Origin: an uncultured Enterobacteriaceae bacterium
Lineage (GTDB): Bacteria > Verrucomicrobiota > Verrucomicrobiia > Opitutales > UBA953
DNA: 32,000 nucleotides
NCBI GenBank assembly: GCA_964590115.1
Contig: CAZPYE010000012.1
Coordinates: forward strand, 1-32,000
Direction of reading: 5' to 3'
A program made the position numbers and the translations under genes. Numbering within the stretch: the first letter of the stretch is position 1; each line of letters opens with the position of its first letter. Shown here piece after piece: positions 12,516 through 20,220 of this stretch. The notes beneath the pieces were generated by a model. The model was not told where the DNA came from. It saw nothing but the letters and a program-made list of their open reading frames with translations, and searched no databases.

Positions 12516-13271
12516 ATGTGCAATACCTCTGTTAAAGCTACTGTCGCCATTCCCGCGCGTCTCGGTTCGACGCGCCTTCCCGGAAAAGTCCTCCTTGATC
12601 TCGGCGGGAAACCCGTTGTCCGTCACGTTTGGGAGCGTGTTTGCAAAATGAAAAATGCGGCTCGCGTCGTTATTCTCGCCGACACCGAAGAAGTGCGTTC
12701 GGTCGCAACGGCGTTCGGCGCGGAAGTGATTATGACGTCGCCGGAATGCCGTTCGGGAACGGAGCGCCTTTCCTCGGTTCTCCCGCAGCTTCCCGGCGAG
12801 TTTTTTCTGAATGTGCAGGGCGACGAGCCTTTTGTGGACACGGACATGCTTGATGCTCTTGTCGAACGTTATGCGGAAACGCACTGCGAGTTGGTTACGG
12901 CAGTTGCAAAAATCACCGATCCGGCGAAGTTGCAGAACCCGAACGTCGTCAAAGTAGTCCGCGGAAGCGACGGACGGGCGATTTATTTTTCACGTTCCGC
13001 CGTGCCGTATCTGCGGGGCGTTCCCGCCGAGGAGTGGCTCTCGAGCGGGAAAACGACGTGGTGGTCGCACATCGGCGTTTACGGTTATGCGCGCTCTACG
13101 CTCGAAGCGCACCCGACAATGCCCGTTACCGTTCTCGAAACGGTAGAATCTCTCGAACAACTGCGTTTCATCGACCGCGGAATGAGCTTCCAGACGATTG
13201 AAACGGATTATCACCCCGTCGCTATCGACACGGCGGAAGATCTTGAAAACGCACGAAAACTCTTTGCGTAA
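12516..13271 (+). CDS. kdsB: 3-deoxy-manno-octulosonate cytidylyltransferase (CMP-Kdo synthetase)
   Basis: 251 aa with the KdsB signatures AIPARLGSTRLPGKVL and NVQGDEPF, plus overall collinearity with the family. Confidence 0.92.
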   Translation: MCNTSVKATVAIPARLGSTRLPGKVLLDLGGKPVVRHVWERVCKMKNAARVVILADTEEVRSVATAFGAEVIMTSPECRSGTERLSSVLPQLPGEFFLNVQGDEPFVDTDMLDALVERYAETHCELVTAVAKITDPAKLQNPNVVKVVRGSDGRAIYFSRSAVPYLRGVPAEEWLSSGKTTWWSHIGVYGYARSTLEAHPTMPVTVLETVESLEQLRFIDRGMSFQTIETDYHPVAIDTAEDLENARKLFA

Positions 13272-13287
13272 GCGATTTAGAAAAAAA

Positions 13288-14271
13288 ATGATGACGAAAG
13301 AACAAATTATCGAGGCGGGAAAACACGTTCTCGGCGCGGAAGCGGACGCACTTCGCGTGATGCGCGACGGCTTGGACGAAAATTTTTCCAAGGCAGTGGA
13401 TATCCTTTTTGAAGCGGACCGGAAGGTGGTTATTTCCGGAGTCGGGAAATCCGGTCTTATCGGACAAAAAATTGCCGCGACGATGTGCTCGACGGGAACG
13501 CCGGCGATTTTCCTGCACAGCGCGGACGCCGTTCACGGAGACCTCGGCATTTGCCGGCCGGGAGATCCCGTCGTTCTGATTTCCAAAAGCGGGACAACCT
13601 CTGAGGTGGTCCGCCTGCTTCCGAGTCTGAAAAAAATGGGCTCAAAAATTATTGCGATTGTCGCCAATAAAAATTCCCCGCTCGCGGAAAAAGCGGATGT
13701 CGTGCTCGATATCGGCGTAAAGACCGAGGCGGATCCGATCGGAATCGTTCCCACGACGAGCACGACCCTCCAACTCGCGATGGGCGACGCGCTTGCCGCC
13801 GCACTCATGCATAAGCGGCATTTCGGCGAGAAGGATTTCGCAAAGTTTCATCCCGCCGGGCAACTCGGAAGAAACCTGTTGCTGACCGTAAAAGACGTTA
13901 TGCACCCGCTCGGAAAAATTGCCGTCGTTCCCGCCGACGCTTCTCTGCGCGACACCGTTGTCGCAATGACGGCGTTCCCGCACGGCGCCGCACTCGTTGC
14001 GGAAGGCGAAGGCGAGTTGCTCGGTATCATTACGGACGGGGATTTGCGCCGTGCACTTCACAAATACGAAAGTATTTCGGACGTTCCCGCGAAAGACCTG
14101 ATGACGGCGAAACCCGTTTGCGCGTTTGAAACGATGTCGCTCGGCGATGCCGCCCGCGTGATGGAAGACCGCCCCTCGCAGATTTCCGTGCTTCCGGTTC
14201 TCGATACTCCCGGAGGAAAAATTGCCGGAATTATCCGTATTCACGACATTTACCAGGCAGGGTTGGTGTAG
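13288..14271 (+). CDS. kdsD: Arabinose-5-phosphate isomerase (KpsF/GutQ/KdsD family; SIS domain plus tandem CBS)
   Basis: Trimmed from 13198 to the ATG at 13288. It has a SIS domain (VVISGVGKSGLIGQKIAATMCSTGTPAIFLH..ISKSGTTSE) followed by two CBS repeats. It sits adjacent to kdsB. Confidence 0.9.
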   Translation: MMTKEQIIEAGKHVLGAEADALRVMRDGLDENFSKAVDILFEADRKVVISGVGKSGLIGQKIAATMCSTGTPAIFLHSADAVHGDLGICRPGDPVVLISKSGTTSEVVRLLPSLKKMGSKIIAIVANKNSPLAEKADVVLDIGVKTEADPIGIVPTTSTTLQLAMGDALAAALMHKRHFGEKDFAKFHPAGQLGRNLLLTVKDVMHPLGKIAVVPADASLRDTVVAMTAFPHGAALVAEGEGELLGIITDGDLRRALHKYESISDVPAKDLMTAKPVCAFETMSLGDAARVMEDRPSQISVLPVLDTPGGKIAGIIRIHDIYQAGLV

Positions 14272-14308
14272 TTGAAAAGAATTAGGAATTAGAAATAAAA
14301 AAAAAAAG

Positions 14309-14375
14309 AATTAGAAGTAAGAATTTAGGAGTTAGGAAGAATACTAATTTCTGATTTCTTACTTCTAATTTTTTT
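14309..14375 (+). terminator. Long-loop hairpin with T-tract in an AT-rich island; probable terminator after kdsD
   Basis: AATTAGAAGTAAGAA (14309-14323) is the perfect complement of TTCTTACTTCTAATT (14356-14370). An A-run lies upstream and T5 downstream (14371-14375). The 32-nt loop is unusually long. Confidence 0.5.
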
Positions 14376-14391
14376 GTTCTAATTCCCCGTC

Positions 14392-15918
14392 ATGCAATTG
14401 CAATTTCCGTCTCCAGGATGCCTTGCCGAATGGCGGGCGAATCTGCCTCCGCTACGGGAACGTATCGTCGGTGCGCTTTCCGCGGCGGCAGTGATTTCGA
14501 CGCTATGGAACGTTTCCGGCATGGCGGCATTGCCCGTTGTTATTTCCGTCGCGCTCGCGGGAACGGCGTTTTTGTCAGCCTTCGTTCCGCTTCCGTTTGA
14601 GGACGGGTCGCGCGAAATCGGGCGCGACAATCGTCGCAAGCTGTTGCGTTTCCCCGGATTTTGGTTCGGTGCGGTGCTGTTTGCCCTGATGCTGTGTCAG
14701 CACTTCAATCCGAGCCTCGAGGTTTTTTTGCCCGAAAGCGGGTGGTGGGAAATCGGTTATTTTGAGAGCTACGTAAAGTTTCTCCCGAACGGAATCACAG
14801 CTCCGTTCGGTCTGGACGGCAATCGGCTCGGAATGAACGCATTGCGGCAAATTTGCGTTTTCGGCGGCGCGTGGCTGTTGTTTTGCACCCTGTGGTGCGG
14901 ATTGCGTTCCCGCCGCGCGCGCACTTGGCTGACTTGGGCTCTCGTCATTAACTCGGTTTTGCTTGCCGTGTTTTGCCTCTTGCGGTGGTCGAACGATTTA
15001 ACAAAGGAGTTTCTCGGATATACGACCGGTGTCGGCAGCTTTTTCGGGGTTTTCTCCTACAAAAATCACGCCGGGGAATTTTTCGTAATGGGATTGGCGC
15101 TGACGACGGCGCTTTCGCTGACAACGTGGCGGCACAATGTCGAAAAATACAAAAAGAGCGGAGCGCACGTCCTGCTTGCGGTATTCGCTCTGTTTCTGTG
15201 GATTGCCGGCTTGTGCACCGCAAGTTTCGCGGTCATTGTCGAATGCGCGGCGTGGATCCTGATTGTCCCCGTGCTGATTTTAACCTCCGGGCTGATGCGG
15301 CGGACGGCTTGGATCGCGGGAACATTTGTGGGCGTAATGATTGTCGGTCTCGCCGTCGTCTGGTTCGCAACAGCGGATATGAATTCCACTTGGAAGAAAA
15401 TTGAAACCAAGTATGAATTGATGAAAAAAGAGGAAATAGACGATAGAGCTCCGCTTCGCGAACTGACGCTGAAAATGGCAGAACGCAATGACACCCGCAA
15501 ATGGTTAGGGTGGGGCGCCGGCTCCTACCGTTGGATTGCCCCGGCGTTTCAGGCGGGAATGCCCGAATTTTTGAACAAAAAAGGACAGCTGAAAACGAGA
15601 ACCGAATACGCGCATTGCGATCCTTTGCAAATGCTTGCCGAGTGGGGACGCGTCGGCGCGGGAATTTTCTTCGCGGGAACGCTGTATTTCTTCGTCTTTG
15701 TTTTAAAGAACTTCCGCCGCTGGCGCGGGGCGACCGTCGCGCTCCTGTGCGGAATACTGTTTTTTATCTCTCACGCGACGATGGATTTCGTAAGCTACAA
15801 CCCGGGGCTGTTGCAAATGCTCGCCGTGCTTGCCGTCGGCGTGAAATGGAGTTTTAAACAGCAAGGCGTCGCCAAGGATTCCGCGTCGCCGGAATTGTCT
15901 CGGAGAAAGCCCGCTTAA
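14392..15918 (+). CDS. O-antigen ligase / O-antigen polymerase (Wzy_C) family membrane protein
   Basis: 508 aa with at least 10 TM helices. A large loop contains EYAHCDPLQMLAEWG, resembling the H-x-x-[YP]-L-Q-x-L-x-E-x-G signature of WaaL/Wzy_C proteins. It lies immediately after kdsB-kdsD. Confidence 0.78.
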   Translation: MQLQFPSPGCLAEWRANLPPLRERIVGALSAAAVISTLWNVSGMAALPVVISVALAGTAFLSAFVPLPFEDGSREIGRDNRRKLLRFPGFWFGAVLFALMLCQHFNPSLEVFLPESGWWEIGYFESYVKFLPNGITAPFGLDGNRLGMNALRQICVFGGAWLLFCTLWCGLRSRRARTWLTWALVINSVLLAVFCLLRWSNDLTKEFLGYTTGVGSFFGVFSYKNHAGEFFVMGLALTTALSLTTWRHNVEKYKKSGAHVLLAVFALFLWIAGLCTASFAVIVECAAWILIVPVLILTSGLMRRTAWIAGTFVGVMIVGLAVVWFATADMNSTWKKIETKYELMKKEEIDDRAPLRELTLKMAERNDTRKWLGWGAGSYRWIAPAFQAGMPEFLNKKGQLKTRTEYAHCDPLQMLAEWGRVGAGIFFAGTLYFFVFVLKNFRRWRGATVALLCGILFFISHATMDFVSYNPGLLQMLAVLAVGVKWSFKQQGVAKDSASPELSRRKPA

Positions 15919-17791: not shown

Positions 17792-17820
17792 TTCTAACGG
17801 AGTTTCTTCCCTAAAAAAAG

Positions 17821-17853
17821 GCGTTCCCGTCTCTATGGCGGAAACGCTTTTTT
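17821..17853. terminator. Bidirectional-looking terminator between the convergent MFS gene and paralog B
   Basis: GCGTTCCCG (17821-17829) pairs with CGGAAACGC (17839-17847) at 8 of 9 positions across a 9-nt loop. An A7 run lies upstream and T6 downstream (17848-17853). The left arm is itself a copy of the abundant CGTTCCCG octamer. Confidence 0.65.
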
Positions 17854-17880: not shown

Positions 17881-19002
17881 TCAGTCGTATTTGCGTTTGA
17901 CGAAAGGCGCAAGCCCGGTCGGAAGCACGGGAACGGATTCTTTGACTTTCGTTATCAGCGACGAGGCAATGAGGCCGAAGTAATGCCAATGTTCCGGTTT
18001 GGCGGAGAAAAGCCATTCTAAAGCCGACCAGAAAAAGGCGATTTCGCTCCGCAGTGTTTCCGCCTGAATCCGGAATCGTCGGAATCCGAGCGCGTAGATT
18101 TCCGTAAGTTCCTCCCGGGAGAGAAGTCCGGCACTTGGTGCATCCGCCCCCGCGAGCACGGAAACGTCTTCGCACTTTGCCTCCGCAAGAATACGATGCC
18201 GTTCCCGCAAGGGCTCGGCGTTCCACGGGCTTAGGCGTATCTTAGCGAGTGCGGACAGGTGGCGTTCCCGCACGGGACAATTGCGAAGACAACTGTAGTT
18301 GACCGTGATTTCAAATTTTTCCGTGCCGGAGGTTTCGGCAAGTTTTTTCAAAAGGTCGAGATTGGAAATATCGTCCGGATGGAGCGCGACAACGGAAAAG
18401 CGTTTAGCCGTTTCGATGTAGTATTCGGCGTTCCCGCGTCCGTTTTCGACGACGGACTTGTTCGCGCCCGCACGCACGGAAAGAGCCGGGAATTTTTGGC
18501 GGATATAGCCGGCAAGAAGCTCCGATGCGACGGATACCGAGGCGCGCGGCATTTGCGCGGCGTAATTCAGCAACGTGTTCCCGATTGCGTCGGTGAGCAT
18601 TTCCTCCGTGATGTAGGGATTGTCGAATTGAAAAACGAATGTCGAAGTCCGGGCGGCAAGTTTTTTGAGCGTTGCCGCAATGTCGCCCGGCGGCATAAGC
18701 GGACGCGATTGAAACCACTCGAGTGTCCAGATGCAGGGCGGAGCTCCGTGAATTTCGGCAACGGCGTGCGGGCGGTCAAAATTCTCTTGAACGAAGTCGC
18801 ACAGCACACTTCTCGCCTGTTCGTAAAGAAAGACTCCGCCGATATTCCAGCGAGCTTCCGGGAAATCCGTGTCGGCGAGAACGGCGAGTTTTTTCTCCTG
18901 CGGCGCGGCGGGAGAAAGGAGCGTAAACGGCACCTGCGTTCCCGTGCCGGGCGCACTCGGAGTGAGAGAAATAAAATTGGAGGGCGTGGAAATATTGCTC
19001 AT
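17881..19002 (-). CDS. Uncharacterised protein, paralog B of a tandem pair
   Basis: 373-aa ORF with a GGAGA Shine-Dalgarno 8 nt upstream and a start 20 nt after the stop of paralog A. It shares blocks with A: IHGAP, FDNPYITEEMLTDAIGNTLLNY, VENGRGNAEYY, LHPDD, FEITVNYSCLRNCPVRERH and ALGFRRFRIQ. I recognise no family. Confidence 0.8.
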   Translation of the reverse strand: MSNISTPSNFISLTPSAPGTGTQVPFTLLSPAAPQEKKLAVLADTDFPEARWNIGGVFLYEQARSVLCDFVQENFDRPHAVAEIHGAPPCIWTLEWFQSRPLMPPGDIAATLKKLAARTSTFVFQFDNPYITEEMLTDAIGNTLLNYAAQMPRASVSVASELLAGYIRQKFPALSVRAGANKSVVENGRGNAEYYIETAKRFSVVALHPDDISNLDLLKKLAETSGTEKFEITVNYSCLRNCPVRERHLSALAKIRLSPWNAEPLRERHRILAEAKCEDVSVLAGADAPSAGLLSREELTEIYALGFRRFRIQAETLRSEIAFFWSALEWLFSAKPEHWHYFGLIASSLITKVKESVPVLPTGLAPFVKRKYD

Positions 19003-19022
19003 GAGGTTTTCTCCGAAATAAA

Positions 19023-19997
19023 TTACACGGCGGGGGAAAGCGTGGACGTGGCCTCGAGAAATTGGAGCTTGAGACGCCGGATGTAGTTTTCTCCCGGCGC
19101 ATCCGTGCGTAAGGCGAGGCGAAGCAGATCGTAAAGCACTCCGGCGCCGTTCGCCATACCGCGCCCCTGAACCTTAAACTTGCGGAAACCGAGATCGTAG
19201 AGGCGTTTGATTTCGTCTTGCGTGAGTGCGGCACAATTGCGTTCGGGGTCGCCTACGAGCACGTTCAGGTCGGAACAACCGTTGTTTTTCCAACGCTCGT
19301 CAAACTTCTGGTCAACGTGTCCGAAATAATTCAAAGCGAGACTGGAAAGATATTTGTAGTGCCACGGGCGAATTTTACAGCCGCGAATACAATATTCGTT
19401 GACGAGGATTTCGTAGCGCTCCTTGTCTTCAAGTTGTGCAAGCATTTCAAAATTGGTCGAATCGTCCGGATGCACCATTACCTTGTCAAAACGCTCGGCA
19501 AGTTTGCGGTAGTAGTCGGCGTTCCCGCGCCCGTTTTCGACGGTAACCTTGAGGATGGAAGACACGCGCTTGAGCTTCGGGTAATTTTTCCCGACATGGT
19601 CGAAAAGGGCTTCGGAGGCGCAGATGACGGCGTTGTTCCCGGTAGGATTCTGCTTTTCGAAAAAGTTCAAAAGTGCGTTCCCGGTCGGGTCGGAAACGTG
19701 TTCCTCCCTAAGGAGATGATTCGTGAAAGTGAGGTCGACGGCGATTCCCCGGCGGGCGTAGGCAAGCCCGGCATCGCGCATTTGCTCGGCGGTGCAGGCG
19801 GCGCGAGGCAAAACGCGTCCGCTGTTCCAAAGAAAAAGCGGCGAACCGTGCACGAGTTTTAAGATTTTAACGCCTGTCGTTTGCAGAAAAAAATCGTGGA
19901 ACAGTAAAAGTTCCCGGTCGTTGACGAATGCGCCGGAAACGTCCCAGAACGCGTCGGGCCAAAGCGGGTTAACAAAGGAGGAAATCGGAGATGCCAT
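19023..19997 (-). CDS. Uncharacterised protein, paralog A of a tandem pair
   Basis: 324-aa ORF with blocks VHGSP, FTNHLLREEHVSDPTGNALLNF, VENGRGNADYY, VHPDD, YEILVNEYCIRGCKIRPWH and DLGFRKFKVQG. An alternating beta/alpha pattern suggests an alpha/beta (TIM-barrel-like) fold. I recognise no family. Confidence 0.8.
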   Translation of the reverse strand: MASPISSFVNPLWPDAFWDVSGAFVNDRELLLFHDFFLQTTGVKILKLVHGSPLFLWNSGRVLPRAACTAEQMRDAGLAYARRGIAVDLTFTNHLLREEHVSDPTGNALLNFFEKQNPTGNNAVICASEALFDHVGKNYPKLKRVSSILKVTVENGRGNADYYRKLAERFDKVMVHPDDSTNFEMLAQLEDKERYEILVNEYCIRGCKIRPWHYKYLSSLALNYFGHVDQKFDERWKNNGCSDLNVLVGDPERNCAALTQDEIKRLYDLGFRKFKVQGRGMANGAGVLYDLLRLALRTDAPGENYIRRLKLQFLEATSTLSPAV

Positions 19998-20008: not shown

Positions 20009-20037
20009 AGATAACGCGTTCCCGCGTTTGCCTGCAA
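20009..20037 (-). promoter_or_regulatory. Candidate sigma70-type promoter for the paralog operon (minus strand: TTGCAG - 17 nt - TTATCT)
   Basis: The -35 is the complement of 20032-20037 and the -10 is the complement of 20009-20014. AAATTTCAAT lies immediately upstream, and 11 nt separate the -10 from the ATG at 19997. Confidence 0.35.
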
Positions 20038-20041
20038 ATTG

Positions 20042-20075
20042 AAATTTAGCGCACGCGAACGCGTGCGCTAAATTT
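20042..20075. promoter_or_regulatory. Perfect 16-bp inverted repeat AAATTTAGCGCACGCG-aa-CGCGTGCGCTAAATTT; candidate operator
   Basis: All 16 pairs verified base by base (20042-20057 against 20060-20075). It abuts the -35/UP region of the candidate paralog-operon promoter and is centred roughly 55-60 bp upstream of the expected transcription start. Confidence 0.5.
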
Positions 20076-20167: not shown

Positions 20168-20191
20168 ATTTACAGGTCTCCAAATTGAAAT

Positions 20192-20220
20192 TTGACGAAG
20201 CGAATCCGTGTTTTTACGAT
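20192..20220 (+). promoter_or_regulatory. Candidate sigma70-type promoter for comM (TTGACG - 17 nt - TACGAT)
   Basis: Hexamers at 20192-20197 and 20215-20220, with AAATTGAAAT immediately upstream. Only 7 nt separate the -10 from the ATG at 20228, which implies a leaderless transcript. Confidence 0.35.

Follow-up and report, generated by a model that had tools for sequence, protein, structure and literature searches.

A tandem pair of diverged paralogs in Opitutales and Akkermansia as a putative heterodimeric barrel metalloenzyme of a remote U32 branch

Two adjacent minus-strand genes, named A and B, are described here from a 32,000-nucleotide stretch of Opitutales DNA (positions 1 to 32,000 of contig CAZPYE010000012.1, assembly GCA_964590115.1); this whole stretch is referred to as the window. 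With a probability of about 0.6, the two genes form an operon encoding a heterodimeric (beta/alpha)8-barrel metalloenzyme that belongs to a remote branch of the U32 family. A would be the catalytic subunit and B a degenerate partner; the enzyme would probably be an iron-sulfur (Fe-S) protein catalysing an O2-independent oxidation. The proposal is built on observed features of the pair: paralogy, fold, remote relationship to U32, strict pairing, gene fusions and asymmetric conservation. A and B are confirmed as paralogs, well past chance similarity (BLASTP: 29% identity and 49% positives over 287 amino acids (aa), E 4e-41), as the preliminary description of this DNA had claimed.

The barrel-like fold that had been suggested from the letters alone is borne out by an AlphaFold2 (AF2) model of A. 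This model, built on a 36-sequence alignment, has a predicted local distance difference test score (pLDDT) of 90.8 and a predicted template modelling score (pTM) of 0.89, and its strands and helices alternate as in a (beta/alpha)8 barrel. Its best Foldseek match in the Protein Data Bank (PDB) is 5D88, to our knowledge the one U32 "peptidase" domain with a solved structure (E 3.4e-7; template modelling (TM) score on the target, 0.61; probability, 1.00). The same structure ranks first for an independent model of a natural fusion protein (E 2.2e-6; TM on the target, about 0.6; probability, 1.00). Generic triosephosphate isomerase (TIM) barrels give E-values about 100-fold worse. The matched protein, Mk0906 of Methanopyrus kandleri, is the closest structural relative found (TM on the target, 0.60-0.61; 15-16% identity), but it is shorter (247 aa), the TM on the query is only 0.48 and the root-mean-square deviation is 5-6.5 Å.

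The relationship is also found in the sequences. Individual scans of the 95 members of a broad family alignment gave sub-threshold matches to PF01136, the U32 domain, for 32 members and to any other Pfam family for at most three. The best PF01136 score (member P0280, E 1e-4) is 19.4 bits, versus a gathering threshold of 22.4 bits. Alignment of the family with a four-sequence Escherichia coli U32 profile (hhalign) extends over 269 collinear columns (E 2.3e-5, probability 76%); the match to UbiU alone is weak (E 1.4e-3) and no match to UbiV alone was found. The hidden Markov model (HMM) of the family finds two anchor blocks in UbiU, TrhP and RlhA of E. coli (hmmsearch): "NgVIvsSD.L..yIr..YP.L" and "LydlGFR.FK.QGR", the latter corresponding to "GV.S.KIEGR" of U32 proteins. 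The block "GFRKFKVQGRG" of A aligns to "GVRSFKIEGR" of RlhA and to "GVHSLKIEGR" of TrhP. Both the "K-I-E-G-R" strand and the "DA-l-I-v-x-D ... P" strand-helix of U32 proteins are therefore present in A, where "FKVQGRG" and "NAVICASEALFDHVGKNYPKL" align to TrhP, RlhA and UbiU. B retains the second of these U32 blocks; the first is replaced by "FRIQAET".

Taken together, the fold match, the PF01136 trend, the shared motifs, the hhalign result and the PrtC-like name given to one member (P0305) by the Joint Genome Institute pipeline point to the UbiU/UbiV pair as a real, distant homolog, and not the conceptual precedent only that had been assumed at first. Three features define the Fe-S enzymes of the U32 family: PF01136, a TIM-barrel fold and four cysteines conserved as CX6CX15CX3/4C (PMC6747719, PMC11574389); variants of this motif are CX6CX16CX38C in UbiU and CXnCX12CX3C in UbiV (PMC6747719). 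The A/B family departs from it: the CX6C pair is absent, and C203-X3-C207-X33-C241 (A numbering) is found instead. The pair has the barrel and the KxE/QGR strand, but because it falls short of the Pfam threshold and lacks the four-Cys motif, it is not filed as a canonical U32 member; its family is best seen as a distant sister group within the U32 superfamily, under the curated thresholds. The earlier statement that the pair could not be placed in any family is thus superseded; the branch is remote and uncatalogued. Membership of the radical S-adenosylmethionine (SAM) superfamily was considered, in view of the barrel and the C-x3-C, and rejected: CX3CX2C is absent, the residues after CX3C being K/P-I/V-R and position +2 lacking a Cys, and PF04055 matches neither A, B nor any of the 95 family members.

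The family is large and without annotation in any database. Searches of Pfam, NCBIfam and PDB sequences with A and B gave no match (none to PF01136 even at E<=1), and the family profile matched only a spurious designed protein among PDB sequences; these searches thus returned no confident match to a stand-alone characterised enzyme. Close A-type relatives form 265 clusters at 90% identity, all unnamed or "hypothetical", from Opitutales (Candidatus Spyradosoma, Spyradenecus) and Akkermansia. Only 32 B-type relatives were found by word-based search, because B diverges faster. A phmmer search with A over 1.84 billion representatives gave 804 clusters (50% identity) at E<=1e-3, 398 of them at E<=1e-10. 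An origin from a defence system or a phage was rejected: the PADLOC scan for defence systems found nothing, and the phage check gave one weak PHROG match of unknown function (E 0.002).

The two subunits are unequally conserved in the 50 genomes from which pairs were cleanly extracted (B-types: 10 from Opitutales, 40 from Akkermansia). Invariant alignment columns number 88 of 319 in A-types versus 30 of 327 in B-types, and the mean identity of the Akkermansia proteins to the window protein is 53% for A-types and 30% for B-types. All 27 residues tested in A-types are invariant in 50/50 genomes; they include W18, H50, N93, N107, G156, G158, Y163, H176-P-D-D179, N200, E201, C203, C207, R210, H213, C241, R272, K275 and Q277-G-R-G280. 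B-types keep W, N93, Y163, the H, P and second D of H-P-D-D, N200, R210, H213 and Q277 (A numbering). The Q-G-R-G segment, which is the counterpart of the U32 "KIEGR" strand, is absent from every B-type (QAET, QGSQ and similar instead). The motif pairs on which the first description relied are all present in the translations: PDAFWDVSGAF/PEARWNIGGVF, VHGSP/IHGAP, VENGRGNADYY/VENGRGNAEYY and VHPDD/LHPDD, and likewise C-x3-C, the third Cys and LGFRKFKVQG/LGFRRFRIQA. Their strict conservation holds for A-types; it does not hold for B-types, in which the Cys triad is often lost, the first D of H-P-D-D varies and the G-x-G (G-R-G) loop, invariant in A-types, is degenerate.

The Cys/His site of A (C203, C207, H213, C241) is at least 90% conserved in the 95-sequence alignment and follows a strand, "EILVNEYC", that resembles the U32 signature strand. 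Its three cysteines are homologous to C238, C242 and C277 of B. In the 50 B-types, the triad is complete in 27, lost in 22 and partial in 1; it is kept in 10/10 Opitutales and lost in 23/40 Akkermansia. This nearly all-or-none distribution, together with the invariance in A, suggests that the three cysteines act as one unit, probably a single metal or cluster site, as had been supposed. Since the triad is often lost in B and never in A, the site is dispensable in B and not in A. Two features are specific to B. One is Cys90, found in 49/50 B-types; completion of the cluster of A by this residue across the interface was considered and set aside, the fusion proteins having no such Cys. The other is a C-terminal tail conserved to its last residue, with the pattern LP[ST]GL..F....[YH][DE] in both Opitutales and Akkermansia. 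Judged from its sequence, B is plainly maintained by selection rather than decaying as a pseudogene.

The following mechanism is proposed; the metal, the reaction and the substrate are presumptive. A would be the catalytic subunit, the loops of its barrel carrying H-P-D-D, N-E, C-x3-C-x5-H, the third Cys after another 33 residues, and the K-x-Q-G-R-G strand. Its three cysteines would most likely hold an Fe-S cluster, probably [4Fe-4S], the fourth iron of which may be open, ligated by His or, in most species, ligated by Cys55; a Cys3(His) zinc site would be the alternative. B, an ancient paralog and presumably obligate partner, keeps the fold, several pocket residues, Cys90 and the C-terminal tail. 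It would be a scaffold, a substrate-binding subunit or an electron-relay subunit rather than a second active site, because Q-G-R-G is lost everywhere and the Cys triad in many lineages. The likely chemistry, by analogy, would be the O2-independent oxidation or hydroxylation of a housekeeping substrate, e.g. an RNA base, a small metabolite or a lipid. UbiU/UbiV, TrhP, TrhP1/P2 and RlhA are Fe-S proteins involved in O2-independent hydroxylation (PMC6747719, PMC6599085, PMC10990095, PMC11574389); because every characterised U32 enzyme is of this kind, a related reaction is the best guess.

Several observations weigh against this proposal. The thresholds of Pfam and NCBIfam are reached by neither A nor B, and hhalign gives a probability of no more than 76%. 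The U32 four-Cys motif is absent, the three invariant cysteines having another spacing. The A protein of the window has Phe at position 55, where 43/50 orthologues have Cys, and H213 is conserved in B-types that have no triad, so it may not be a metal ligand. Stand-alone members indicate that heteromerisation is not universal in the wider family. No conserved neighbour indicates a substrate: when 81 loci were clustered (shadow-ORF clusters arising from open reading frame (ORF) calling were disregarded), no partner beyond A-B was found to be conserved in both Opitutales and Akkermansia. In 31 Akkermansia loci (e.g. L001:8011-9189), i.e. only about half of them, the pair is followed by metK (S-adenosylmethionine synthetase) in the same orientation; no Opitutales locus has this arrangement. 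Lastly, Akkermansia already has a canonical U32 gene (PMC10540074), so that a function cannot be assigned to the pair by gap-filling.

The main rival is a non-redox barrel enzyme, in which A and B would have a sugar or phospho-metabolite as substrate and work, e.g., as a lyase, isomerase or hydrolase. The zinc bound at the Cys3(His) site would be structural or catalytic, and the likeness to U32 would reflect only remote shared descent of the barrels, without a common chemistry. Many invariant polar residues of A are typical of sugar/phosphate barrels (D19, H50, N58, R61, N93, N107, Y163, H176, D178, D179, N200, E201, R210, R272, K275), and the structures ranked by Foldseek after 5D88 are methylenetetrahydrofolate reductase (MTHFR), 3-deoxy-D-arabino-heptulosonate 7-phosphate synthase (DAH7PS), epimerases and isocitrate-lyase-like barrels. 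The absence of the canonical four-Cys motif would also fit, as would the sugar or sialic-acid genes and major facilitator superfamily (MFS) transporter genes that adjoin the pair in several genomes. The neighbouring sugar genes are, however, not conserved between lineages. With two independent models, the U32 structure outscores all other folds by about 100-fold, PF01136 is the sole recurrent Pfam family among the members, and the U32-specific "K-x-[EQ]-G-R" strand is common to both. The non-redox enzyme is therefore regarded as unlikely, while being the alternative to be taken most seriously.

The heterodimeric character of the proposed metalloenzyme is supported by gene order. Paired loci were collected with an A-type-only alignment, from 80 reference genomes and three metagenomic loci. 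In 83/83 of these, the A-type gene is directly followed by a B-type gene in the same orientation, with intergenic distances of -6 to 149 nucleotides (nt); the same order is found in 2/2 more distant lineages reached from B-type queries, i.e. in 85/85 loci in total. Besides Opitutales and Akkermansia, the loci include other lineages. Fusion proteins that occur in nature (P0300-P0303, about 660 aa) associate an A-like N-terminal half, with the Cys motif and QGRQ, and a degenerate C-terminal half without cysteines. The AF2 model of one fusion contains two barrels joined by a disordered linker; its pTM of 0.78, obtained despite about 100 disordered residues and with an alignment only 4 sequences deep for the C-terminal half, suggests a confident mutual arrangement of the two modules. 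A physical A-B complex is therefore presumed, and the obligate heteromer put forward in the preliminary description is supported by the adjacency of the genes, which answers the question of co-occurrence raised there, as well as by the fusions and the fusion model.

A and B could alternatively be independent enzymes, or A a homodimer co-transcribed with a separate paralog. Such an organisation would agree with the stand-alone, single-copy members of the wider family (P0305, P0329). It is improbable given that A-then-B adjacency is kept in every locus although B has diverged to about 30% identity, that the recurrent fusions each join one Cys-bearing and one Cys-less module, and that the fusion model has a pTM of 0.78; moreover, a protein such as B, devoid of Q-G-R-G and often of the triad, yet under purifying selection and with a conserved tail, is typical of a non-catalytic partner.

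Three side observations were made on unusual members. On a metagenomic contig (L085:8037-14288), three tandem fusion genes (675, 577 and 666 aa) lie beside sulfatase and phosphodiesterase genes; this trio is a local expansion of the fused form. The gene of stand-alone P0305 (L086:8333-9619) has no adjacent B and is followed by a gene for 5-enolpyruvylshikimate-3-phosphate (EPSP) synthase, a single instance and possibly a coincidence. EPSP synthase belongs to the shikimate pathway, which leads to prephenate, the oxygen donor of U32 hydroxylases. Protein P0156 (534 aa) combines an A-type N-terminal fragment (residues 4-259), a PheT-like FDX-ACB anticodon-binding domain and a C-terminal sorting domain of the type IX secretion system (T9SS). 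If real, it would hint at a tRNA substrate; it was rejected as a clue, being most likely a chimeric or misassembled gene call.

That A and B are true U32-type peptidases (PrtC-like collagenases) is very improbable. The product name given to P0305 by the Joint Genome Institute (JGI) pipeline, "collagenase-like PrtC family protease", points that way, as does a comparative-genomics paper in which the U32 genes of Akkermansia are treated as "collagenase" (PMC10540074). The JGI name is, however, an automatic COG label, the N-termini of A and B, as read from the sequences, do not resemble signal peptides, and the biochemically defined U32 members cited here are all Fe-S hydroxylases (PMC6747719, PMC11574389).

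The similarity of A and B could lastly be an artefact of DNA composition. The octamer CGTTCCCG is found at 18429-18436 in B and at 19520-19527 in A, where it encodes R-G-N of the GRGNA block in both genes. With its complement CGGGAACG, it has 98 copies on both strands of the window versus about 4 expected (25-fold over-representation; about 1 per 330 bp), e.g. at 17822-17829 and 20017-20024, in coding DNA, intergenic DNA and terminator stems. Its density per kb is 3.1 in the window, 4.0 in close Opitutales, 2.2 in Spyradenecus-like genomes and 0.02 in Akkermansia loci; it is a lineage-specific genomic word, uptake-sequence-like or otherwise selected. The caution that the GRGNA block might be partly DNA-driven is justified only in part. 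The exact "NGRGNA" string is confined to the closest Opitutales, and the octamer may well contribute to the exact R-G-N-A identity of A and B. The motif core and the paralogy are not DNA-driven: only 1 of the 7 octamers inside A and B is at a homologous position, and the A-types of Akkermansia, where the octamer is about 150-fold rarer, retain the G-x-G core as GGKGKL. With homology over 287 aa and B intact in every genome examined, which also settles whether one copy is decaying, the reading of the pair as an artefact or as a gene and its pseudogene is effectively refuted. When B-types of Opitutales are compared with those of Akkermansia, the match is better (E 8e-54) than that with A (E 8e-33); the A/B duplication therefore predates the split of these classes.

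Among the known systems, the nearest is UbiU-UbiV of E. coli (YhbU/YhbV), an O2-independent ubiquinone hydroxylase. This heterodimer carries one [4Fe-4S] cluster per subunit (PMC6747719). Both systems consist of adjacent, diverged paralogs with U32-type barrels, heterodimeric in UbiU-UbiV and presumably so in A-B, and both have a Cys-rich loop after an "E-I/V-x-V" strand and a "K-x-E/Q-G-R" strand. In UbiU, a distal Cys (C232) follows an earlier one (C193) at about 38 residues, much as C241 follows C203 in A, and the cysteines of UbiV include a C-x3-C pair and one far upstream (PMC6747719). There are also differences: the similarity of A and B is under every curated threshold, three invariant cysteines (CX3CX33C) are found instead of four, a UbiT/SCP2 partner and a ubiquinone pathway context are absent, the hosts are Verrucomicrobiota and not Proteobacteria, and B is often Cys-less whereas UbiU and UbiV both bind a cluster.

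TrhP1/TrhP2 of Bacillus subtilis (YrrO/YrrN) and TrhP of E. coli (YegQ) are prephenate-dependent hydroxylases of U34 in tRNA. TrhP1 and TrhP2 are tandem U32 paralogs of one operon, non-redundant and both required (PMC6599085). They resemble A-B as tandem paralogs of one operon and in their housekeeping character, without any metabolic cluster. The Akkermansia pair is followed by metK, and yrrN/O are accompanied by yrrM, which encodes a SAM-dependent methyltransferase; this recalls the yrrM-yrrN-yrrO arrangement. The absence of an operon context is typical of RNA-modification enzymes; like the resemblance to yrrM-yrrN-yrrO, it is only a hint. A and B differ from the TrhP proteins by the lack of a PF01136 match, of the TrhP C-terminal domain, of an adjacent methyltransferase and of a detected RNA-binding domain, and a canonical U32 gene is already present in Akkermansia. 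RlhA of E. coli (YdcP), the hydroxylase of C2501 in 23S rRNA, has two U32 domains (PMC6747719), as the fusions P0300-P0303 have two modules per chain, and its "GVRSFKIEGR" strand aligns with that of A. Its domain architecture and Cys motif are different, and the second module of the A-B-type fusions is Cys-less.

The features of the locus are given in Table 1. The coordinates, the gene lengths, the 20-nt gap and the GGAGA site of B reported in the preliminary description agree exactly with the ORF list and the sequence. B has an N-terminal extension of about 40 aa in addition to its tail. A and B are considered as one operon because the terminator scan found no terminator-like site in the 20-nt spacer and a hairpin with a run of seven T lies after B. 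This terminator, shared with the convergent MFS transporter gene, is missing from the scanner output, its 9-nt loop being above the limit of the scanner. The inverted repeat lies in the divergent intergenic region upstream of A, between A and a yifB/comM-like gene. This repeat may serve as an operator or may form a hairpin in the 5′ untranslated region; its membership of the A-B system is uncertain. No Rfam match at this repeat and no leader or riboswitch upstream of A was found above noise. A 16-nt direct repeat, CT[GC]CAAATTGAAATTT, is present in two copies 146 nt apart (20032-20047 and 20178-20193) that flank the intergenic region between A and the yifB-like gene; one is about 35 nt upstream of the start codon of A, while the TTG listed as start of the yifB-like ORF falls within the second.

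Table 1. Features of the A-B locus in the window. Residue numbers refer to the protein encoded by the gene named.
Feature	Positions	Strand	Description
Gene A	19023..19997	minus	324 aa, ATG start; presumed catalytic subunit, remote U32-like (beta/alpha)8 barrel (ORF, AF2, Foldseek)
Candidate metal/Fe-S site of A	19275..19391	minus	C203, 19391-19389; C207, 19379-19377; H213, 19361-19359; C241, 19277-19275
H176-P-D-D179 of A	19461..19472	minus	End of a barrel strand; invariant in 50/50 A-types
Q277-G-R-G280 of A	19158..19169	minus	Within "GFRKFKVQGRG", counterpart of the U32 "KIEGR" strand; invariant in A-types
A-B spacer	19003..19022	minus	20 nt; GGAGA ribosome-binding site at 19014-19010, 7 nt before the ATG of B
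Gene B	17881..19002	minus	373 aa, ATG start; diverged paralogous partner (ORF, 29% identity to A)
Cys triad of B	18172..18291	minus	C238, 18291-18289; C242, 18279-18277; C277, 18174-18172
B-specific conserved C-terminal tail	17884..17925	minus	LPTGLAPFVKRKYD, residues 360-373, conserved to the last residue
Probable intrinsic terminator of the A-B operon	17813..17847	minus	GCGTTTCCG-loop-CGGGAACGC then T7; read directly from the sequence
Perfect 16-nt inverted repeat	20042..20075	none	AAATTTAGCGCACGCG nn CGCGTGCGCTAAATTT, 100% complementary

The housekeeping character of the neighbourhood, already pointed out, is seen in the gene list around A-B: SulP, KdsB, KpsF, an O-antigen-ligase-like gene and the MFS transporter on one side; YifB/ComM, AmiC, MurJ, FTHFS and ClpX on the other. 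Genes for a KdsB-like cytidylyltransferase, a KpsF/GutQ-like isomerase with SIS and CBS domains and an O-antigen-ligase-like membrane protein (12516-15918) form a small lipopolysaccharide (LPS)-core cluster beyond the MFS transporter gene, which appears unrelated to the pair.

A bolder form of the proposal, tentative and rather doubtful, is that the pair founds a new functional class of U32 proteins: a site-differentiated [4Fe-4S] cluster held by three cysteines with an open iron, an obligate pseudo-enzyme paralog and a novel O2-independent oxidation or hydroxylation. By analogy with IspH, aconitase and NadA, the open iron would bind the substrate or the oxygen donor. If this is true, the reaction may be, e.g., a new RNA modification or a tailoring step of a lipid or cofactor, and the class would be widespread in gut Verrucomicrobiota, including Akkermansia.

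Only recent work has shown that U32 "peptidases" are Fe-S enzymes which incorporate oxygen in the absence of O2, with prephenate as its donor; how they work and what the cluster does are open questions in the field (PMC10990095, PMC11574389). What is new here is a large sister branch of U32, "hypothetical" in every database and present in Akkermansia and other gut Verrucomicrobiota, which is missed by U32 censuses because it falls below the PF01136 threshold. The three-Cys motif and the natural series of B-types with and without cysteines are a ready-made comparative experiment for two questions: which of the clusters in paired U32 enzymes is the catalytic one, and whether a coordination site of a U32 cluster is open. 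The analysis also provides a testable annotation for two conserved hypothetical genes of Akkermansia, a health-relevant genus.

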